Of a stretch of DNA of 64,000 nucleotides, positions 10,291-58,251 are shown one piece after another (within the stretch, counting starts at the first letter, position 1; each line of letters opens with the position of its first letter). Both the position numbers and the translations under genes were made by a program. The notes beneath the pieces are model-generated. The model made no database searches. It worked only from the letters and a program-made list of their open reading frames with translations, and had not been told where the DNA came from. Source of the DNA: Minisyncoccia bacterium (GTDB lineage Bacteria; Patescibacteriota; Minisyncoccia; Phycocordibacterales; DATDWN01); the NCBI GenBank assembly GCA_049297675.1, contig JBAQUS010000011.1, positions 101,184 to 165,183 of the forward strand. The letters are read 5' to 3'.

Positions 10291-10566
10291 TTAAAAAAGT
10301 TCGGAATGGTTGCCAATGTCGATTAATATCAAAACGAGCTCTCTTTTTCGGATTTGATAAACTAGAAGCAGGTCACCTTTAATGTGACACTCACGGAGGT
10401 TGTGCATACTTCCATGTAAAGAATGGTCTTTGTATTTTAGTGGGAGTGTTTTTCCTGAAGCTAGTATTTCGACAGCTGTTTCGATTTCGACCCTTTTGAT
10501 CTTCCCAGAGTGCATGACTTTCTTAAGGGATTTCTCAAATCTCTTAGTGAATATTTTTTTATACAT
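10291..10566 (-). CDS. yafQ: YafQ/RelE-family mRNA interferase toxin
   Basis: TLPLKYKDHSLHGSMHNLRECHIKGDLLLVYQIRKRELVLILIDIGNHSELF matches the YafQ pattern (LPxxYKDHxLxG ... REcHI ... DxLLIY ... GTHSxLF). Confidence 0.7.
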   Translation of the reverse strand: MYKKIFTKRFEKSLKKVMHSGKIKRVEIETAVEILASGKTLPLKYKDHSLHGSMHNLRECHIKGDLLLVYQIRKRELVLILIDIGNHSELF

Positions 10567-10583
10567 TTATTTTCCACTAAAAT

Positions 10584-10859
10584 TTAGACCAAAATATCAT
10601 CAAACATTTCTCGGGTAGAAGAATATCTTTTGCCGTGCTTTAAAGCCTCCACAGCCTCCCTTTCATATTTCTCAATTATTTTAGGATTGTATTTGTGAGT
10701 AAAACCAAATGGGCAAACATAAGTAAGATTATTAGGGTCGCTTTCTCTGGCCAAAAGAAACTTTATTCCGGAAGACAAATCAAGCCCCATATTCTTAAAC
10801 ATTTTTATAGCTTTTGTTTTTGTTGCCTTGTCTATTCTAATTTGTAGTGTTGTGTCCAT
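10584..10859 (-). CDS. dinJ: DinJ/RelB-family antitoxin, partner of the YafQ toxin
   Basis: MDTTLQIRIDKATKTKAIKMFKNMGLDLSSGIKFLLARES matches DinJ; the ORF-track start at 10943 is an upstream extension. Confidence 0.65.
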   Translation of the reverse strand: MDTTLQIRIDKATKTKAIKMFKNMGLDLSSGIKFLLARESDPNNLTYVCPFGFTHKYNPKIIEKYEREAVEALKHGKRYSSTREMFDDILV

Positions 10860-10936
10860 TTGGACAGTATAAAAAAATGTAATGATAATGTCAATACATA
10901 CTTTGTTGTAAGTGAAGGTGTACTTACCTACAATGA

Positions 10937-10998
10937 CTTGCAATTTTTACGGGGGGTAAAATTGAGGTATTAAAGTTAATACTTAAAAGTATAAAATT
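10937..10998 (+). promoter_or_regulatory. conserved promoter/leader module, copy b (TTGCAA, 6 G's, TAAAAT)
   Basis: cttgcaatttttacggggggtaaaattgaggtattaaagttaatacttaaaagtataaaatt followed by ATG. Confidence 0.45.
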
Positions 10999-11409
10999 AT
11001 GGAAACATACCACGATAGTTCTGGTCAAGAAATAAGTAGGGAATCTTTTATTGAATCACAGGAGAAAGAACATGATATTGAAGAAAGACTTTTGAGAGAG
11101 TCAGGGTGGTCACCGCTAGATGTTGTTCGTACTTTCTATCTATATGATAAATATGATGAAGCTAATCGTGACCAAGCGATAGGTGTAAAAAGGACTGTCG
11201 TTGTAATTGACACAACCATTCCGTCATACGGGTTTGATCATTGGGAAATTAATGGTGATGTTTTGCCACCAGATAATTCTGCAAAAAGTATATCAGTATA
11301 TGAATGGGTGAAGAACGGTGATGAGTATAAATGGGTTGAGATCGAAAGATATAAATGTAGTTATGATGGTGGTAAGCAGGGTGAATGGAAAAGTCTAGAT
11401 CTGACATAA
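10999..11409 (+). CDS. hypothetical protein
   Basis: ORF track. Confidence 0.35.
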   Translation: METYHDSSGQEISRESFIESQEKEHDIEERLLRESGWSPLDVVRTFYLYDKYDEANRDQAIGVKRTVVVIDTTIPSYGFDHWEINGDVLPPDNSAKSISVYEWVKNGDEYKWVEIERYKCSYDGGKQGEWKSLDLT

Positions 11410-11476
11410 ATACACTAAAAGAAATCCATATAGCTCAATAATTGACTATAAGTTTATCTTAAGATAAACTTATAGT

Positions 11477-11728
11477 ATGACTAAAATCAAGGATAAAATA
11501 ATAGGGCTTAAAGAGCTTAGGGAGAATACTGAAACTTATATTTCCCAAGTGGAAAAAGGTAAGTCTTTTGTGGTTATGCGAAAGTCAAAGCCAGTTTTTA
11601 CTATTTCTCCAGTAGACGAATGGGGAGATGAGGGTACCTGGGAAACAGTCGTAGACTTTAATGAGATAAAAAAAGGTGGTGTTCCAATTGAAGATGTGAT
11701 AAGTAGTTTGAAAAGATTAAATAGATAG
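11477..11728 (+). CDS. Phd/YefM-like antitoxin
   Basis: KIIGLKELRENTETYISQVEKGKSFVVMRKSKPVFTISPVDEW fits the Phd/YefM pattern; immediately precedes a RelE/ParE toxin gene. Confidence 0.5.
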   Translation: MTKIKDKIIGLKELRENTETYISQVEKGKSFVVMRKSKPVFTISPVDEWGDEGTWETVVDFNEIKKGGVPIEDVISSLKRLNR

Positions 11729-11735
11729 CTTATTT

Positions 11736-11969
11736 ATGAATAAAATAGATAAGTTTCTGAAAAAACTAATAACAGGCGACAGAGTTTTTATTTTAAAAGT
11801 TTTGAATCAAATATATTCTGGAAATTTCGAAAATTTACACGTAAAGAAGCTAAAAGGATTTAAAAATAAATACAGAGTTAGGGTGGGTAGAATAAGGATA
11901 ATATTTACTAAAGAAAGAGAAGGAATCAGAATTGATAAATTAGATTTTAGGAGCGATAATACATATTAA
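11736..11969 (+). CDS. RelE/ParE-family toxin
   Basis: KKLKGFKNKYRVRVGRIRIIFTKEREGIRIDKLDFRSDNTY fits the LxGxxxxYRxRVGxYRIIY ... I ... HR motif. Confidence 0.6.
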   Translation: MNKIDKFLKKLITGDRVFILKVLNQIYSGNFENLHVKKLKGFKNKYRVRVGRIRIIFTKEREGIRIDKLDFRSDNTY

Positions 11970-11977
11970 CTAATCTA

Positions 11978-12172
11978 ATGGAGACATTCTGGGACTTATT
12001 AAAAGATCCGGCACATTGGTGGTTTGAGTTATTTCTCATTTTTATTTTCGACGTAGTTGTCGGACTTATTGTTTGGCCGTTTGTCCAAAAGGCACTTATT
12101 CACCATAAATCCGATCACGAAAGACTAGAGGATTTAGAGAGGGAGGTGGAAAAACTAAGAAATAAAATGTAA
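11978..12172 (+). CDS. small membrane protein, hypothetical
   Basis: ORF track; one TM helix plus a charged tail. Confidence 0.3.
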   Translation: METFWDLLKDPAHWWFELFLIFIFDVVVGLIVWPFVQKALIHHKSDHERLEDLEREVEKLRNKM

Positions 12173-12174
12173 TT

Positions 12175-12435
12175 TTATCTGTATCCATCATGGTCATCAA
12201 TTGCCAGTAAGTACACTTCGTTTTTTAGTCCATATTGAAATATTATTCTGTCTTTACGATTAATCCAAAAGGCATATTTATCGCTCAGTCTACCGTGCAG
12301 TTTATGAACTTTCAGTCGCTTGTGGTTAAGAGGGTTTTCAAACAGTTTTATTTTTTCCAAAACCTCCTCATAGAATTTATTATCCAACTTTTTTAACTGT
12401 TTAATAAATGTGTGCGTATATATAAGACTAATCAT
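12175..12435 (-). CDS. RelE/ParE-superfamily toxin
   Basis: FIKQLKKLDNKFYEEVLEKIKLFENPLNHKRLKVHKLHGRLSDKYAFWINRKDRIIFQY ... VYLLAIDDH. Confidence 0.5.
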   Translation of the reverse strand: MISLIYTHTFIKQLKKLDNKFYEEVLEKIKLFENPLNHKRLKVHKLHGRLSDKYAFWINRKDRIIFQYGLKNEVYLLAIDDHDGYR

Positions 12436-12437
12436 AT

Positions 12438-12662
12438 TTAGTCTTTAAATTTTCTAACTATTTCTCTCAGGTCTCCACTAAAGACCCTGCCATTTTTTAT
12501 ATCCTTCTCTGCTTCAAAGATATTTTTTAGCAGTTCTTCTTCTGCATATAAATCTAATGCTTGTCTGACGGCATGGGCCTTATTAGCTGCCTTACCGCTT
12601 TTTACAAGGGAAGATATAAACCTTTCATTTTTTGGTGATATGGGTACTGATATTGTAGTCAT
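12438..12662 (-). CDS. ribbon-helix-helix (CopG/ParD-like) antitoxin, partner of the 12175..12435 toxin
   Basis: MTTISVPISPKNERFISSLVKSGKAANKAHAVRQALDLYAEEE; 3-nt gap to the toxin gene. Confidence 0.5.
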   Translation of the reverse strand: MTTISVPISPKNERFISSLVKSGKAANKAHAVRQALDLYAEEELLKNIFEAEKDIKNGRVFSGDLREIVRKFKD

Positions 12663-12810
12663 ATGATAATATATTAATTTATATGATATTATCATATATT
12701 AATAAGTAACTAAATGTCAAATTTACTTACTGATATTGCTCAAAATAGTCTTTTAGTATATAGTTTTCTCGTATCCCGAGAGGGTATTTTATTTACCACA
12801 ATAAATGAAT

Positions 12811-24346: not shown

Positions 24347-24382
24347 TTGACATTTCATATCCAAAGTATATACTTTGGATAT
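24347..24382. promoter_or_regulatory. 34-bp perfect palindrome overlapping the start of the RelB/DinJ-like antitoxin gene (putative autoregulatory operator)
   Basis: tttcatatccaaagtatatactttggatatgaaa. Confidence 0.5.
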
Positions 24383-24656
24383 GAAAACGATGATAAATAT
24401 AAAAACAGATGTTGAGATAAAAAATCAGGCCAAGAAGGTGGCTAAAGAGCTTGGTATTCCACTCGGGACTGTGCTTAACGCATATTTAAGGGAGTTTATT
24501 CAAACTAAGACGGCTCACTTTTCATTGGTACCAAGAATGACAAAAACCTTGGAGCTACTTTTAGGGTCTGTTGAAAAAGATGTGAGGAAGAGAAAAAATC
24601 TTTCCCAAACTTTTTCTTCTGATAAAGAAGCCATTAGTTATCTAAATAATCTCTAA
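24375..24656 (+). CDS. RelB/DinJ-family antitoxin
   Basis: MINIKTDVEIKNQAKKVAKELGIPLGTVLNAYLREFIQTK matches DinJ/RelB. Confidence 0.6.
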   Translation: MDMKTMINIKTDVEIKNQAKKVAKELGIPLGTVLNAYLREFIQTKTAHFSLVPRMTKTLELLLGSVEKDVRKRKNLSQTFSSDKEAISYLNNL

Positions 24657-24661
24657 GTCTT

Positions 24662-24922
24662 ATGAGAGTCGTTTTTCATAAGAATTTTGAAAAGAAATAC
24701 AAAAGACTAAGGTCCTCCGAAAAAGATAGGTTTAAAAAAATTTTAAATACTTTTATTATTGATCCGTTTTATCCAACTTTGAACAACCACGTATTATCTG
24801 GTAAATACGGAGGTTTTAGAAGTATAAATATCGGTGGCGATTTAAGGGCTATTTACAAAATGTTAGATAATGATATGTACCTCTTTGTGACCATTGATTC
24901 ACACAGCAATTTGTATGAATAG
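24662..24922 (+). CDS. RelE/YafQ-family toxin
   Basis: FEKKYKRLRSSEKDRFKKILNTFIIDPFYPTLNNHVLSGKYGGFRSINIGGDLRAIYKM ... DSHSNLY. Confidence 0.6.
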   Translation: MRVVFHKNFEKKYKRLRSSEKDRFKKILNTFIIDPFYPTLNNHVLSGKYGGFRSINIGGDLRAIYKMLDNDMYLFVTIDSHSNLYE

Positions 24923-24981: not shown

Positions 24982-25833
24982 ATGATATGCTTACGAGCAG
25001 AAATGCAGGAATCTCCTGCAACTGATCCAGCAGATCTCTGGAAAGTACGTTCACAGGGAGAAACTGTCATGACGACTCAAGTTGTCGCAGACGGCATTGC
25101 CAAGAGAAAACCGACGGTAGATGAGATGGAAACACTGCTCTTCAATCGCATTCCGGATCTGATTCGCCGCTACAAAGAGGGCGGTCTTGATCCAGCCGGA
25201 GTGAACACGACCCTGCAGATGGTGGCGGAAGGTTCAATCATCACTGAATCGAAAACAGTGGTGGTCGCTCCACCGAAGCCAAAGCAGGACAAGTTCGAAC
25301 TTCTCACGACGTTCGAAGTCACGGTCCCGGAAGGTTACAACCACGCAACTCACCTCGACACGTTCCGTGCACAGCATCAGAGTAAAGAGAACAAGGAGTT
25401 CTACTTCTACAACGATGCCATCACGGACGCGAACTACGCGGCGAAAGCGACGACCAAGTTGACCGCCGGCCGGAGGTTCTTGGTCAAGGCCTTCGGTATC
25501 AAGAAGACGGTGAGTTCACTCGACTGTCTCGCGAAGGTCAAGGCCGAAAACGCTGTTTTGACCGGGGCGCAGGGTGCATCCCTCGTTTACGAGGAGAGGA
25601 AGAACGAATTGCCGAAAGGCAAGTATTACGTCTCTTTCGATGAAAAGGATGCCCTCTGGCGGGATCCGTACGGCTACCACAGGGTGCCGCTCGTGTGCGC
25701 GTACTCCGATGACGACTTTCGCTTCGATCTCGGCCTCTTCGAGTTTGACTGGGTTTCCGTCTACGTCCTCCTCTGCTTCTGCGACTTGCCCAGTGACTCG
25801 TCTTCGGGCGAGGCACAGATCTTGGACGCTTAG
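24982..25833 (+). CDS. DGR target protein (GC-rich gene; the C-terminal ~45 aa are encoded by the variable repeat)
   Basis: its 3' end (about 25654-25786) matches the template repeat at 26200-26332 except at template adenines; the whole gene is about 55% GC. Confidence 0.6.
   Translation: MICLRAEMQESPATDPADLWKVRSQGETVMTTQVVADGIAKRKPTVDEMETLLFNRIPDLIRRYKEGGLDPAGVNTTLQMVAEGSIITESKTVVVAPPKPKQDKFELLTTFEVTVPEGYNHATHLDTFRAQHQSKENKEFYFYNDAITDANYAAKATTKLTAGRRFLVKAFGIKKTVSSLDCLAKVKAENAVLTGAQGASLVYEERKNELPKGKYYVSFDEKDALWRDPYGYHRVPLVCAYSDDDFRFDLGLFEFDWVSVYVLLCFCDLPSDSSSGEAQILDA
25654..25786 (+). repeat. DGR variable repeat (VR)
   Basis: 133-nt match to the TR; about 18 mismatches, all but one at TR adenines. 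Confidence 0.7.
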
Positions 25834-32350: not shown

Positions 32351-32785
32351 ATGTCAAAAGTGGTAGGAGGGTCCATGACCAATAAGAACCAGCGATACAA
32401 CCAACTCAAAAGTATTCTGGAGTCGAGGAGGGAGGAACTCCGAGAAGAGCTCAGGGGTGACATCGGTACCATCCAGTCGTCAGGGAATCAGACCGGCGGG
32501 GATCCTGTCGATCGCGGTGTAGCCGCGAACCAGGATGATCTAGAATTCGCTTTGATCCAGATGAAGTCTGAAACACTCAGTCGCATTGTGGGTGCACTCG
32601 TCCGTCTCGAACATGGCAAGTACGGCATCTGTTTAGATTGTGACGAAGAAATCGCCGAGAAGCGCTTGCGTGCGTTGCCGTTCGCAGATCGATGTACTGA
32701 CTGCGAGGGTGTCAAGGAGAATGAGGAGACCTTGAAACGTCGTCCATTTCAGGGTCAGCATGTCGGCCCACTTTTCGACCTCTAG
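32351..32785 (+). CDS. DksA/TraR-family C4 zinc-finger protein, GC-rich insertion between rplE and rpsZ
   Basis: C-terminal CLDCDEEIAEKRLRALPFADRCTDCEG is a C4 finger preceded by a coiled-coil region; GC content is far above the flanking ribosomal genes. Confidence 0.55.
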   Translation: MSKVVGGSMTNKNQRYNQLKSILESRREELREELRGDIGTIQSSGNQTGGDPVDRGVAANQDDLEFALIQMKSETLSRIVGALVRLEHGKYGICLDCDEEIAEKRLRALPFADRCTDCEGVKENEETLKRRPFQGQHVGPLFDL

Positions 32786-49985: not shown

Positions 49986-50696
49986 CTAGCAAGGACGGTC
50001 CTTGCTAGTCAGAGCGTCGCGATCTTTCTCGATTTCCTTCTCGAAGTCACTCTTTGGACCGAGTGGATCCTGTGGCTGAAACATGTCTCCGAGGTACTGG
50101 CCGTAAGTGATCCAGTTGTCCTCGCAGTACGCCTCGACCATGGTTTCCTGAACGACCTCGGGATCGGGGAGATAGTATCTTCCTCTCCATTCCTCCTGGC
50201 CGATGAGAGTCACGAGTTTGACGAACTTCTGCATCGCGGTGTGAGTGAAACCCTCACCGTTACGCAGGTTGAGTCTCAGGTTTGCCGTCAAGGCAGACCC
50301 GTTGGCCCAGACTGGACTGACACCACCATCGTCGTCGGTGTAATCCCAATCAGCACCAAGCTCGTTTCCGATTACTTCCGAGAGTGCTCGGCGGAAGTGC
50401 TGGCGGATCACCTGCTGGTGAACCTCGCGAGCAGTCTTCTCGGCTTCGAACTCAACCCTGAGAGTGGCCTTACCACGAAACATCGTGGCGGTCACTTGAA
50501 CCAGAACAGCTTCACACACCTTAGTAGGCATGTGCTTCTGATGAGCCGGCGCCATCGGGTTAACGAAACGCCAGGTCATCGTCGTGCGCTGGAGCTTCTT
50601 CATGGCTGTCTCCTTGCTGTCATAAACTCTGGGTCTACCAGAGGCCCAGCATAATACCGGGACAAATAACAGCAATCTAAGCACAATTATAAACAA
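49986..50696 (-). CDS. hypothetical protein encoded by a strongly GC-rich gene (foreign-looking); the plus-strand ORF 49953..50654 is its antisense shadow
   Basis: ORF track; the minus-strand protein has an ordinary composition while the plus-strand ORF is L/R/S-rich junk. Confidence 0.35.
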   Translation of the reverse strand: MFIIVLRLLLFVPVLCWASGRPRVYDSKETAMKKLQRTTMTWRFVNPMAPAHQKHMPTKVCEAVLVQVTATMFRGKATLRVEFEAEKTAREVHQQVIRQHFRRALSEVIGNELGADWDYTDDDGGVSPVWANGSALTANLRLNLRNGEGFTHTAMQKFVKLVTLIGQEEWRGRYYLPDPEVVQETMVEAYCEDNWITYGQYLGDMFQPQDPLGPKSDFEKEIEKDRDALTSKDRPC

Positions 50697-51220
50697 TTTA
50701 TAACTCTATGTCAAGGGGTAGTTTGGGCGCCGAAAGGGTGGCTAAGATGTTGAGACTTTTATGAAGAAAGGGCAGTTGGTTAGGAATGATTTTAGTTTCG
50801 TTAATACAAGAATCACTTCATTGCTCAATAGTTTTTTATTAGACGAGGTGTCTTTTACTGAAAGCGTGTCCTGAGCCATGTTTTAAGTATTTTTCAAATT
50901 TTAGTGCCTTATTTTTATTTGGAAATGCGCAAAACCAGATTAATGAGAATGGAAGTTTAGTTTTTGAGTATCTAGACTCCCCGTTATTGTGTTCTTTTAG
51001 TCTATTCTTGATGTTTTCTGTGCTTCCGAAATATAGACTACCATCCTTCTGACTTTTTTAGAATGTAAACATAGTGCATATAAAGAATATATATCCTGCG
51101 TCGCTTGATTACAAGCTATGCAGGATCCACTGCTTCGCTAACAAAAAACCTCACAGGTTGTGTGAAGTTTCTTGTGCTAAAGGTATTTAGTGCCTGCACT
51201 GCGTAGCTTTAGCGAAGCAG

Positions 51221-51617
51221 TGGAGATGCCGATAGTTGAAATCGGGTCCATAAAGTGAATCGAGACAGATCTACAATACTTAGTTTACTTAAAGTTTTAA
51301 TCCGTGTTGCTTAGAGTAAACCAAACACAACACGGACGATCTTCTATTTTCTGGTTTCACTCGAAGAAAGTGAAACTATAACCTTAGTTTATATCAATCA
51401 TCTCCTCCTTAAAGGTTCAAGAGGAGAGACCGTCGTTTAGGTGTTGAGTTTAAGCAACTGCGTAAGCGAAAGCAAAATCGTTTGCTCCAAAATATGGAGA
51501 AGCGGATGCTTTTTTAGATAAGTTTTTTACACTTAATCTTTCCAGACTTTTTAAGAGTTTCTGGAGCTCTGTATTGCCTGAATCAATATCGTCTTTATGT
51601 CAAAACCTGTCATCCCC
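51221..51617 (-). ncRNA. ssrA: tmRNA (ssrA), about 397 nt, predicted tag peptide (A)ANDFAFAYAVA
   Basis: minus-strand 5' end GGGGATGACAGGTTTTGACA resembles GGGGCTGATTCTGGATTCGAC; the 3' end CCGAT-TTCAACT-ATCGG-CATCTCC-A forms a T-arm and a 7-bp acceptor stem with the 5' end, including a G3:U70 wobble pair; internal ORF GCA AAC GAT TTT GCT TTC GCT TAC GCA GTT GCT TAA at about 51450-51485; smpB lies immediately upstream. Confidence 0.6.
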
Positions 51618-51729: not shown

Positions 51730-52173
51730 CTATTTACCTTTCAAGTCTCTCTCGATATCACGTTCTGTGTCTCTCTTCTTGATCGACTCTCTTTTGTCGA
51801 ATTTTTTCTTGCCCCTAGCGACTGCGATATCGAGCTTTATTAGACCCCCCTTATTATACACCGAAATTGGGACAATTGTCAATCCTTTAGCGTTTTCAGT
51901 GCCAGATAGAGCCATAATCTCCTTTTTGCTAAGCAAAAGTCGTCGGTTTCTGTACGGATCATAGTCTTTTGGAGTGTTTCCAGCTTGATATGGCGGGATG
52001 AACATGCCAATTAAATAGGCTTCCGCACCACGAATGGTTACATAAGTACCCTCTAAAGACCCCTGACTTTTCCTTAATGACTTTACCTCAAACCCAAAAA
52101 GCTCTATACCGGCAGTATATTTTTCCAAAATCTCGTAATCGAACCCTGCTTTTCTGTTTGTGATAAGAGACAT
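51730..52173 (-). CDS. smpB: SsrA-binding protein SmpB
   Basis: ITNRKAGFDYEILEKYTAGIELFGFEVKSLR ... GLTIVPISVYNKGGLIKLDIAVARGKK. Confidence 0.9.
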   Translation of the reverse strand: MSLITNRKAGFDYEILEKYTAGIELFGFEVKSLRKSQGSLEGTYVTIRGAEAYLIGMFIPPYQAGNTPKDYDPYRNRRLLLSKKEIMALSGTENAKGLTIVPISVYNKGGLIKLDIAVARGKKKFDKRESIKKRDTERDIERDLKGK

Positions 52174-52208: not shown

Positions 52209-52502
52209 TTGTTTATGTATAGTAAAAGCAGAGGAGGTGACCCTATGGCAAGACCATACGGTGTAAACACCGATTTGCTGTGTCCAGATTGTGCAAGTTC
52301 CGAGAAGGATTTTCCGAAATATCCTCGTGACCAGGTGGGCCAGGTCAGGTGTTCGGAGTGCCAGAGGTTTCTTGTCCATCTGGGGACTCTTAGTGTCGGA
52401 GAGTTGGATGAACTCTCTGCCAGATGGCCGGAGCTGGGCGATGTCAAGTTCAGCACCATCTGTGCAGACTACGATAGGAGGGGAATAAGCTTGCCACAAT
52501 GA
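52209..52502 (+). CDS. small GC-rich CxxC...CxxC zinc-ribbon protein (likely start at MARPYGV near 52245)
   Basis: LCPDCASSEK ... VRCSECQRF; GC content far above the neighbourhood. Confidence 0.3.
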   Translation: MFMYSKSRGGDPMARPYGVNTDLLCPDCASSEKDFPKYPRDQVGQVRCSECQRFLVHLGTLSVGELDELSARWPELGDVKFSTICADYDRRGISLPQ

Positions 52503-52727: not shown

Positions 52728-54659
52728 ATGCCTGAAAATCAGGAAAAAAAGAAAATAATAATAAAAAGGTCGGGAAAGGGGGGCAAAGACCCTGAAGATA
52801 GCTCTATACTAAACTACGTAATATACGTCATTGTTATTTTTATTGTGCTTTCTTCAATTTACTCTCTTGTTTCTGATTCTGGTTCAAATAAAGTCGAAGA
52901 AATTTCCATATCACAGCTTTCAGCAGATGTTCAAGCAGGTTTAGTTGATTCAATAACAGTAAACGGCGATAGCTTAGATCTTTTATATAAGAAAGGTGAA
53001 AAAAAGATTTCCAAAAAAGAGGAGTCTGTGGCACTTTCTCAAACTCTAGTAAATTATGGAGTAACAAAAGAGGAGATTGGTTCTGTTAAAGTAGATATTC
53101 AAAACCAGAAAGGTTTTAGTTTTTGGTTTATAAATCTTTCACCAATTATTTTTCCCATTCTTTTCATTGTTATCTTCATTTGGTTTCTGACCAGACAAGT
53201 CAAAGGTGCTGGCATTCAAGCTCTAACTTTCGGGCAGTCAAAAGCCAGGATGATAGATCCAAACGACAAGTCGCAGAGAGTGACTTTCAAAGACGTGGCT
53301 GGATGTAAGGAAGCAAAAGAGGAGCTTTCAGAAATAGTTGATTTTTTGAAAAATCCTCAAAAATTTCTAGATATTGGGGCTAGGATTCCAAAGGGTATTT
53401 TGCTTATGGGGGCACCTGGCACAGGAAAAACCATGCTTGCTAGAGCTGTCAGTGGTGAGGCTCGAGTTGCTTTTTTCTCGATTTCAGGTTCGGAGTTTGT
53501 GGAAATGTTTGTCGGTGTTGGAGCTTCGCGCGTGAGGGACTTGTTTATGATGGCCAAGAAAAACTCTCCATCAATTATTTTTGTAGACGAGATAGATGCA
53601 GTGGGTAGAGTGCGTGGAGCCGGTCTTGGTGGCGGTAATGACGAGAGGGAACAAACACTCAACCAAATTCTAGTTGAGATGGATGGCTTCGAGCCAAATG
53701 AAAAAGTGATAGTCATGGCCGCAACAAACAGGCCTGACGTTTTGGACCCAGCACTTCTTCGACCGGGGAGATTTGATAGGCGAGTCACTCTTGATTTACC
53801 AGACAGAAAAGATAGGGAGGAAATACTGAAAGTTCATAGTACAAAAAAACCTTTTGCAGAGGATGTAAACTTAACTGTCATTGCCGAGAGGACGCCAGGG
53901 TTTTCTGGTGCTGATCTATACTCTCTTATGAACGAGGGAGCCATCTTAGCTGCTCGTGAAAATCGTACAAAAGTTTCTCAATTTGATCTTATTCGCTCGA
54001 TCGAGAAAGTCATGCTCGGTCCAGAGAGACGAAGTCATCTACTTTCAAAGAAAGAAAAGGAAATCACAGCATATCATGAGGCGGGTCACGCTGTTTTGGC
54101 CTCCATACTTCCTTACGCTGACCCAGTACACAAGATCTCCATTATTTCACGTGGCCGAGCGGCAGGTTATGTTTTCAAGCTCGCACTAGAAGAGAGAAAG
54201 TTACAATCCAAAAAAGAATTTCTTGACGATATTGCAGTTTCTCTCGGTGGATATATTACAGAGAAAATGCTTTTCGATGACCTAACAACTGGTCCATCAA
54301 ATGACTTACAAGTTTCAACAGCTTTGGCACGGGATATGGTTACCAAATATGGGATGTCGGATAGTATTGGTCCTGTAGCTCTTGAAGGCCACGAAGGTAA
54401 AGCACTTTTTGGTAGGGGGGTTGATGAAAAGGAATTCTCGGAGAGAGTGTCAGCGGACATTGACTCTGAAGTTTCCAGAATAATGAAAGAAGCTTTAGAG
54501 AAGGCAAGAGTAGTAATAACAGAGAATAGAAAGCTACTTGATGCGATTGCGGTGAGACTTATAGAGGTTGAAACAATAGAGAGAGCAGAGTTCGAGTCGA
54601 TTTTAGTTGCAAATGGTGTCACTCCAAAAAAGAAGCTTGATATTGAACATCAGGGATAG
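52728..54659 (+). CDS. ftsH: ATP-dependent zinc metalloprotease FtsH
   Basis: TM helices then GAPGTGKT Walker A, DEIDAVGR, second region of homology, HEAGHAV zinc site. Confidence 0.95.
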
Positions 54660-55294: not shown

Positions 55295-55368
55295 GCGCGT
55301 ATAGCTCAGTTGGTTAGAGCATCGAGCTTATACCTCGAGGGTCCCACGTTCGAGTCGTGGTACGCGCA
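55295..55368 (+). tRNA. tRNA-Ile with anticodon UAU (reads AUA directly)
   Basis: gcgcgta / tagctcagttggttagagc / a / tcgag-cTTATAc-ctcga / gggtc / ccacg-ttcgagt-cgtgg / tacgcgc-a gives a clean cloverleaf with U33 and anticodon TAT; CCA not encoded. Confidence 0.8.
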
Positions 55369-55373
55369 CATCT

Positions 55374-57962: not shown

Positions 57963-58251
57963 ACCCCCGAACTAATTAGGACTTTGAATTATGTTCTATG
58001 TGTATATATTAAAAAGTGAAAAGGACAACAATCTTTACACTGGGTATACAAATGATCTTAAAAGGAGACTCATAGAACATAATTCAGGTAAAAGTAAGTC
58101 AACTAAATCGAGAAAACCATTTGAGTTGATATATTACGAAGCAAGGATGACGCTACGCATAGGGAACAAATGTTAAAGGAATACGGTAGATCTCTAGGTG
58201 GCTTAAAAAGACGAATAAGCATGAGTCTTAAGTCCTAATTAGTTCGGGGGT
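57963..58251. mobile_element. 289-bp cassette bounded by perfect 22-bp terminal inverted repeats (ACCCCCGAACTAATTAGGACTT) that encloses only a GIY-YIG nuclease ORF
   Basis: left arm about 57963-57984, right arm about 58230-58251 (exact reverse complement). Confidence 0.5.
57991..58176 (+). CDS. GIY-YIG nuclease (UPF0213-like), interrupted by an apparent +1 frameshift near 58140-58150; the downstream frame continues ...DDATHREQMLKEYGRSLGGLKRRISMSLKS to 58238
   Basis: YVYILKSEKDNNLYTGYTNDLKRRLIEHNSGKS is the GIY-YIG motif; the C-terminal homology resumes in the +2 frame. Confidence 0.55.
   Translation: MFYVYILKSEKDNNLYTGYTNDLKRRLIEHNSGKSKSTKSRKPFELIYYEARMTLRIGNKC

Follow-up and report, generated by a model that had tools for sequence, protein, structure and literature searches.

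The window analysed here, a 64-kb stretch of DNA from a Minisyncoccia bacterium (Paceibacteria, Patescibacteria/CPR), carries on its minus strand a one-piece tmRNA gene (ssrA), which runs from G1 at 51617 to the discriminator A73 at 51221 and is located directly downstream of smpB. ARAGORN called a single tmRNA in the whole window (51220-51617, minus strand) and no second one. The Rfam family RF00023, whose gathering score is 47 bits, matched 51218-51617 on the same strand with 112.2 bits and an E value of 5.2e-43, and the match covers model positions 1-374, i.e., the full length of the model. Homologous tmRNAs in relatives (see below) support the identification. The first-pass annotation, which was made from the letters of the sequence, had predicted a tmRNA at 51221-51617 on this strand and had proposed ARAGORN or Infernal as the check; both programs agree with it, and the strong covariance-model match extends over the entire predicted gene.

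The two ends of the RNA form a tRNA-Ala-like domain. The 7-bp acceptor stem is formed by the 5′ strand GGGGAUG (51611-51617), which contributes G3 of the G3:U70 pair, and by the 3′ strand CAUCUCC (51222-51228), in which U70 is at 51224; the discriminator A is at 51221, the T-arm CCGAU-UUCAACU-AUCGG with its 7-nt loop is at 51229-51245, and there is no anticodon arm. The acceptor stem, the wobble pair, the discriminator and the T-arm had all been pointed out in the first-pass annotation, and each of them is found in the sequence as well as in the Rfam alignment. The 3′ terminal CCA is not encoded; the letters directly after A73 are CUG. An independent Logan assembly contains an identical 1650-bp segment across the ssrA locus.

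The neighboring smpB gene (51730-52173, minus strand) encodes 147 amino acids and lies 112 nt upstream of ssrA. The assignment is based on Pfam PF01668 (171.2 bits), confirming the adjacency that had been claimed before, and NCBI holds an identical protein under the name SmpB [Minisyncoccia bacterium]. Next to smpB and divergent from it is ftsH (52728-54659, plus strand), which encodes an AAA+ membrane protease with the Pfam domains FtsH_ext, AAA, and Peptidase_M41. For comparison we used the 80 loci that encode the closest SmpB relatives (62-76% identity); their titles name Paceibacterota, Parcubacteria, Minisyncoccia, and similar groups, and some are labelled Saccharibacteria. The context is conserved among them: ftsH is immediately upstream of smpB and divergent in 70/80 relatives, and the order recG, tRNA-Ile(UAU), ftsH, and then smpB-ssrA on the opposite strand is likewise found in 70 of the 80. 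This adjacency is suggestive of a role of FtsH, but it may be plain synteny.

On the 3′ side, the tmRNA runs straight into a strongly structured region. A repeat search found an inverted repeat with 16-nt arms (TCCACTGCTTCGCTAA and TTAGCGAAGCAGTGGA) that are 100% complementary and have 67 nt between them. At the RNA level the 5′ arm, UCCACUGCUUCGCUAA (51209-51224, minus strand), begins within the tmRNA at U70-C71-C72-A73, and the 3′ arm is UUAGCGAAGCAGUGGA (51126-51141); the repeat search is joined by the fold for the 5′ arm. Inverted repeats beyond the tmRNA 3′ end had been noticed in the first-pass annotation; they are real, and the perfect 16-nt arms are longer than was described there. Enclosed in this outer stem is an intrinsic-terminator-like hairpin, CAAGAAACUUCACA-CAACC-UGUGAGGUUUUUUG (51142-51174, minus strand), which is seen in the sequence and in both the MFE and centroid folds and is accompanied by an A-tract and a U-tract (the latter at 51148-51143); a simple terminator scan did not list it. 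A second hairpin, AUCCUGC...GCAGGAU (51093-51126, minus strand), was found in the fold between the outer stem and the start of a small GIY-YIG gene, and a hairpin at the same position is also present in six relatives (L074, L032, L062, L002, L016, and L012). The whole 3′ structure has a folding energy of -58.6 kcal/mol (z = -7.1).

Most relatives also have a strong stem and a U-tract hairpin directly 3′ of the tmRNA. The stem extends back to UCCA(C) in about 12 (strict) to 20 of 44 loci, so that the outer stem is not universal, and the arm sequences vary by locus; in L044, L065, L048, L038, and L020 the arms are perfect over 23-25 bp. Because the arms differ between loci and yet still pair with UCCA(C), what is maintained is the pairing of the 3′ stem and not its sequence. 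We infer that the 16-bp stem, the hairpin, and the U-tract together serve as the ssrA terminator and 3′ trailer. A MITE or other repeated element was considered and rejected within the window, where the 14-nt arm motif occurs at this site only in 64 kb. A structured element of ~200 nt is located 3′ of the tmRNA in relatives; a profile search of the window gave no match to it at E values up to 10, and it corresponds to no Rfam family at gathering score.

The ~1-kb region downstream of smpB was previously described as gene-free. It is not: besides the tmRNA, it contains a small GIY-YIG nuclease gene (50839-51079, minus strand) whose frame is broken by a +1 shift within an A6 run (51054-51059). 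The frameshift was identified by alignment with intact homologues, and the frame-repaired protein matches PF01541 with 67.9 bits. The NCBI contig and the independent Logan assembly have the same A6 run.

The position of this gene raises the question of whether the inverted repeat and the hairpin belong to it rather than to ssrA, i.e., whether they are part of a GIY-YIG minigene cassette that was inserted at the ssrA 3′ end. An outer stem, the second hairpin, and a GIY-YIG ORF 125-155 nt past the tmRNA recur together in L074, L032, L062, L030, L016, and L012, and a perfect 22-nt inverted repeat flanks another GIY-YIG minigene of the window (57992-58176); both observations fit with such a cassette. 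However, the five relatives with 23-25-bp hairpins starting from UCCA (L044, L065, L048, L038, and L020) have the stem and U-tract inside them and have no GIY-YIG gene; in addition, the repeat in question lies wholly upstream of the GIY-YIG ORF with no flanking of it, and no further copy of the repeat is present in the window. We consider the cassette origin doubtful and keep the reading of these structures as the terminator and 3′ trailer of ssrA.

From ssrA to infC, the segment varies among the relatives and carries accessory and orphan genes, the GIY-YIG gene being one of them, as is typical of ssrA as an integration hot spot. None of the 80 related loci has a counterpart of the high-GC ORF at 49986-50603 or of the T2SSE/PilB-like ATPase in this segment, and the ssrA-infC interval is clearly accessory. 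Only 8 homologues of the high-GC orphan ORF were found among 5.8 billion proteins; one of them is again located in an ssrA-infC interval, on the Patescibacteria contig L085, where the tmRNA tag reads ANSLVSKVKNAFAFQPAFAVA. Pfam searches of the high-GC ORFs gave no matches except for a DksA/TraR zinc finger. A classical ssrA genomic island was also considered and was rejected: Pfam searches of the ORFs from ssrA to infC detected no integrase, and the tmRNA 3′ end occurs only once in the window. In this the segment differs from ssrA genomic islands, which have an integrase and carry the 3′ end of ssrA again, as a direct repeat, at their far boundary.

Homologous tmRNAs were found downstream of smpB in 69/80 relatives. 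Please note that ARAGORN made no tmRNA call in the closest relatives (L001, L002, and L004-L006) and gave a wrong tag for L079; the missed tmRNAs were recovered by nhmmer and by alignment to the window. Related tags are already present in public genomes, e.g., CP011215.1. The tag alignment comprises the 67 matches that start at the tmRNA 5′ end plus the window, i.e., 68 sequences, of which only the 5′ parts were used.

Pseudoknot 1 (PK1; 51541-51570, minus strand) is formed by the stems AGAG/CUCU and UCCAGA/UCUGGA, corresponding to tmRNA nucleotides 48-51/61-64 and 53-58/72-77, respectively. It is placed by the Rfam alignment and supported by compensatory changes: the stems covary in the 68-sequence alignment, in which pair 55-75, for example, is CG in 25, AT in 14, TA in 10, and GC in 7. 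The 3′ strand of the second stem, UCUGGA, is located at 51546-51541, and the triplet GUA follows 10 nt further on. From this GUA (51530-51528) an open frame of 26 codons, VKNLSKKASASPYFGANDFAFAYAVA, runs to a UAA at 51452-51450 (tag frame 51450-51530, minus strand). ARAGORN reports exactly this tag (VKNLSKKASASPYFGANDFAFAYAVA*), and the RF00023 alignment sets the consensus resume codon on the same GUA, as does the comparison with relatives.

The context of the resume codon in the window is UUAAGU|GUA, and it is conserved to a high degree. Across the 68 aligned sequences, A(-4) is found in 68/68, U(-5) in 63/68, and U(-1) in 67/68, and the first position of the resume codon, G(+1), is again invariant (68/68). 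The codon aligned to GUA is GCA in 32, GCU in 25, GUA in 8, GCC in 2, and GGC in 1 sequence. The pattern agrees with the determinant at -6 to +1 that has been described in E. coli (PMC3985003). All 68 sequences have an open frame of 18-29 codons from the aligned resume codon, which ends with UAA in 67 of them. The first-pass annotation had made its prediction depend on pseudoknots and a resume-codon context preceding the reading frame, and both the covarying PK1 and the conserved context are indeed located there.

The tags share the consensus (A/V)-K-N-x-x-x-K-A-K-x-x-V-S-P-Y-F-G-x-N-D-F-A-F-A-Y-A-x-A. The motif S-P-[Y/F] is present in 64/66 distinct tag sequences, with four codons in use for S and four for P. 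For the 30 tags that are spaced like that of the window, the entropy is 1.15 bits at third codon positions vs 0.52 and 0.57 bits at the other two, and frame 0 is open in 30/30, whereas stops occur in the other two frames in 14 and 20 of them. This pattern shows peptide-level selection on the whole tag frame in the clade. Because of the aligned resume context, the upstream S-P-[Y/F] conservation, the codon periodicity, and the covarying PK1, we read the tag as having 26 codons; once the alanine carried by the tmRNA is counted, the peptide has 27 residues, A-VKNLSKKASASPYFGANDFAFAYAVA.

A tag of ANDFAFAYAVA followed by TAA had been proposed previously. The frame and the stop codon (51452-51450) were right, while the length of 11 residues was not: this peptide represents the last 11 of the 26 codons. 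It would be the complete tag if translation resumed at GCA 51485-51483. This short version looks attractive at first glance: ANDFAFAYAVA is similar in length to ANDENYALAA of E. coli and likewise starts with A-N-D, and GCA is the commonest resume codon among the relatives. However, this GCA sits 56 nt past PK1, where ~10 nt is expected, and it is preceded by UUUGGA, which has neither A(-4) nor U(-5). The S-P-Y-F codons at 51500-51489, which would be outside the tag as they are upstream of this GCA, show amino-acid conservation with synonymous changes (64/66), and ARAGORN and the Rfam alignment both place the resume codon at GUA 51530. Resumption at GCA 51485 is thus very improbable, and the 26-codon tag is used in what follows.

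Could the gene be a decaying or non-functional copy? The frameshift in the neighboring GIY-YIG gene may be taken as a hint of local decay, and PK2-PK4 align at lower posterior probabilities in the Rfam alignment. But the RF00023 match is full-length; the acceptor stem, T-arm, PK1, resume context, tag, stop codon, and smpB are all intact; and the window has no second tmRNA. We give almost no credence to decay. As far as features of tmRNA can be tested in a sequence, every defining one is present at 51221-51617, and the sequence elements required for trans-translation are all intact. Our estimate of the probability that 51221-51617 on the minus strand is a genuine tmRNA whose tag has 26 codons is about 0.9. 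Alanine charging, tagging, and degradation via this ssrA would then be expected. The gene itself, tmRNA plus SmpB, is routine annotation and within reach of any standard pipeline.

The C-terminal end of the tag is where it departs from the familiar picture. The window tag ends with A-V-A and lacks the ClpX-type (L/V)-A-A-COOH. Among 61 distinct peptides of the clade, only 2 end with AA; the last residue is A in 51/61 and V in 8/61, the antepenultimate residue is A in 52/61, and the penultimate residue is R in 12, L in 11, Y in 10, and F in 7, followed by N, I, T, S, V, A, and P. The conserved positions lie farther inside. Counted from the C-terminus, the 30 same-spacing tags all have S(-16), P(-15), F(-13), and F(-6), and they show a strong preference for N(-10), D(-9), F(-8), A(-7), and Y(-4). 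The conserved parts of the tag are thus internal (S-P-Y/F-F ... N-D-F-A-F-A-Y-A), with the last two residues variable. The end of the tag had been called unusual earlier; it does depart from ...ALAA, but in this lineage that is the rule. Since the non-ALAA ending is common to the relatives, it is best seen as a clade trait, typical of the lineage and no peculiarity of the window gene. A literature search found no paper on the tmRNA tags of the Minisyncoccia lineage.

Which protease would read such a tag? According to a review, ALAA is conserved among bacteria with the exception of Mycoplasma, which lacks ClpXP, ClpAP, and Tsp and whose tag ends with AFA (PMC3985003). The long tag of M. pneumoniae is a Lon substrate in vivo (PMC8403727); mutations at its C-terminus stabilise substrates (PMC8403727), and terminal residues can therefore matter for Lon too. 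The tag of M. florum, mf-ssrA, is AANKNEENTNEVPTFMLNAGQANYAFA, 27 residues in length (PMC9097571, PMC10659297). A widely used variant of mf-ssrA with a ...QANRRRV end remains a substrate of mf-Lon (PMC10873288), and mf-Lon therefore reads internal residues; what is said here on the residues read by Lon is based on secondary sources (PMC9382460, PMC10873288).

An ungapped comparison of A+VKNLSKKASASPYFGANDFAFAYAVA with mf-ssrA gives 7/27 identities, at A1, P13, F15, N18, Y24, A25, and A27 (shuffle p ~0.009); this likeness could be due to chance plus a shared compositional bias. The resemblance to the Lon tags of Mollicutes (M. florum, above, and M. pneumoniae, 27 residues) includes the length of 27 residues and a host with a reduced genome, and with the M. 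florum tag in particular the window tag shares a P-x-F that lies 15 residues from the C-terminal end and, after it, a tail of aromatic residues and Ala (Y-A-x-A). In the Mollicutes, internal residues carry the recognition, the RRRV-ended PDT still being a Lon substrate; in the clade of the window, it is likewise the internal motif that is conserved while the end is variable. Unlike the acidic Mollicutes tag, the window tag has a basic, K-rich N-terminal half. Because the phyla are unrelated and have only short motifs in common, convergence is the more economical reading of the likeness, and common descent is unlikely.

Since its conserved determinants are aromatic and lie inside the peptide, and since it has no ...LAA-COOH of the ClpX type, the tag may be read by a protease other than ClpX, i.e., by Lon if the lineage has Lon, or by the adjacent FtsH; by analogy with the Mollicutes, we would give this about even odds. 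Internal aromatic motifs, we infer, suit recognition of the Lon or FtsH type more readily than the ClpX mode, in which a terminal LAA-COOH is recognised. A more specific version, in which an extended bipartite SsrA degron (S-P-Y/F-F ... N-D-F-A-F-A-Y-A-x-A, without AA at the end) evolved independently in Minisyncoccia/Paceibacteria, came to resemble the Mollicutes Lon tag in its length and the spacing of its motifs, and switched to Lon or the syntenic FtsH, is put forward tentatively and with somewhat less confidence.

The conventional explanation is that the tag is an ordinary degron for ClpXP (or ClpAP), with the A-x-A/V end as tolerated drift and the N-terminal part as an adaptor-binding or spacer segment. 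The end is, after all, still small and non-polar, with a last A in 51/61 and an antepenultimate A in 52/61. Against this stands the penultimate residue, which is often R, N, S, or T, as do the differing end registers (FAFAYA, FAFAYAxA, FAFALV, and ...SALA), which contrast with the invariant internal motif, and the tie between loss of ALAA and loss of ClpXP (PMC3985003). We regard the ordinary ClpXP degron as possible but rather unlikely. Neither Clp nor Lon was found among the screened ORFs of the window or the Pfam-annotated genes within 10 kb outside it, which is a small fraction of the genome and hence uninformative, and a literature search that included the description of Minisyncoccus found nothing on Clp/Lon in Patescibacteria or Parcubacteria.

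Taken side by side with the canonical E. coli-type tmRNA/SmpB system, the window gene is alike in its tRNA-Ala-like domain with G3:U70, in its further pseudoknots, and in the adjacent smpB. It is also alike in the ~10-nt spacing from PK1 to a resume codon that begins with G and has U-A at -5/-4, and in a short ORF that ends with UAA and has a non-polar end. It differs in that the tag has 26 codons vs 10, the resume codon is GUA (Val), the C-terminus is ...AYAVA vs ...ALAA, and CCA is not encoded in the window.

Based on these features, the following working of the tmRNA is proposed. Stalled nascent chains would receive A-VKNLSKKASASPYFGANDFAFAYAVA (27 residues), with resumption at GUA. The tag would then act as a degron that is recognised mainly through its internal aromatic motifs. 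At the 3′ end, the 16-bp outer stem, the inner hairpin, and the U-tract right after A73 would serve as the ssrA terminator and 3′ trailer, and because CCA is not encoded, it would be added after 3′ trimming.

The corrected tag length matters for searches of Patescibacteria metaproteomes for tagged peptides. If resumption at GUA is right, tagged chains would end with ...SPYFGANDFAFAYAVA, joined to the truncated proteins via Ala-Val; as a reporter-fusion sequence the tag is AVKNLSKKASASPYFGANDFAFAYAVA. The Minisyncoccia tags could serve as orthogonal degradation tags, like mf-ssrA/mf-Lon in synthetic biology. If the switch of protease is true, the protease specificity of tmRNA tags would have changed naturally for a second time in a lineage with reduced genomes, and the loss or rewiring of ClpXP would be predicted in Minisyncoccia/Paceibacteria. 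A large uncultivated radiation of reduced genomes that uniformly has tags of 19-30 residues, with the invariant S-P-Y/F-F motif inside, an aromatic FAFAYA block, and a variable end other than AA, would then be, if true, a second natural case of degron-protease co-evolution.

The divergently transcribed neighbor ftsH (window 52728-54659, plus strand) adjoins the smpB-ssrA pair in 70 of the 80 loci of the closest SmpB relatives, and the wider conserved order reads recG, tRNA-Ile(UAU), ftsH | smpB, ssrA, a variable segment, and infC-rpmI-rplT. The usual bacterial way of decoding AUA relies on a CAU tRNA carrying a lysidine modification, and a tRNA-Ile with a UAU anticodon is rare among bacteria. 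Such a tRNA gene is located at window 55295-55369 (plus strand), and most of the 80 relatives have one, on one strand or the other, in the approximately 4 kb that precede smpB; therefore, tRNA-Ile(UAU) is a trait of the clade.

Two sigma-70 promoters matching the consensus perfectly (12/12) were predicted, both on the minus strand. The first, TTGACA-18-TATAAT (51882-51853), sits within the coding region of smpB, roughly 235 nt before ssrA, and may serve ssrA as an internal promoter; the other, TTGACA-17-TATAAT (50714-50686), is upstream of a high-GC orphan ORF in the ssrA-infC interval.

Directly 3' of ssrA is a small GIY-YIG nuclease gene (50839-51079, minus strand) that is split by a +1 frameshift at an A6 run (51054-51059), and intact homologues occupy the equivalent position in four relatives (L074, L032, L062, and L030). 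The NCBI contig and an independent Logan assembly carry the same frameshift, so an assembly error is unlikely and the gene is probably a true pseudogene. A second GIY-YIG minigene, called at 61 amino acids and seemingly truncated, starts with the ATG at 57992 and lies between the perfectly matching 22-nt arms of an inverted repeat (ACCCCCGAACTAATTAGGACTT / AAGTCCTAATTAGTTCGGGGGT), which are 245 nt apart; the whole unit (57963-58251, plus strand) resembles a miniature cassette. Farther along the contig there is at least one additional GIY-YIG gene (L086 18178-18876).

Four ORFs have a GC content of 50 to 54%, against about 37% for the genome around them. The orphan ORF (49986-50603, minus strand) has just eight homologues in 5.8 billion proteins, and a Pfam search with it returned no match. 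Between smpB and ftsH, the ORF at 52245-52502 (plus strand), preceded by the strong Shine-Dalgarno sequence GAGGAGG, encodes a CxxC...CxxC zinc-ribbon protein and was found in none of the 80 relatives. The third is at 24982-25833 (plus strand), and the fourth (32351-32785, plus strand), inserted between rplE and rpsH, encodes a DksA/TraR zinc-finger protein. Small toxin-antitoxin-like gene pairs (10291-12695 and 24375-24922, the latter assigned from ORF translations alone) are scattered among ribosomal-protein and EF-G/EF-Tu genes; precomputed Pfam matches of the corresponding genes on a related contig (L087) are to YafQ/ParE-type toxins and Phd/YefM-type antitoxins.

A conserved element of about 150 to 230 nt with a high degree of structure, absent from the window, lies 3' of the tmRNA terminator in at least 14 relatives (among others, L065 4946-5154, L020 5025-5251, L042 5188-5407, L055 2714-2931, L073 5002-5220, and L067 4885-5086). 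Its termini, GGAGAUG...CAUCUCCA(C), copy the tmRNA acceptor-stem sequences and base-pair with each other; within it, one hairpin shows covariation, and GGGAAUCGA and UCGAUUCCC form a helix. Additional copies adjoin tRNA-Ile(UAU) (L067 1398-1213 and L003 1122-1044), and comparison with Rfam gave no family at the gathering score. Candidate explanations for it are a mobile element and a new tRNA-gene-associated RNA.
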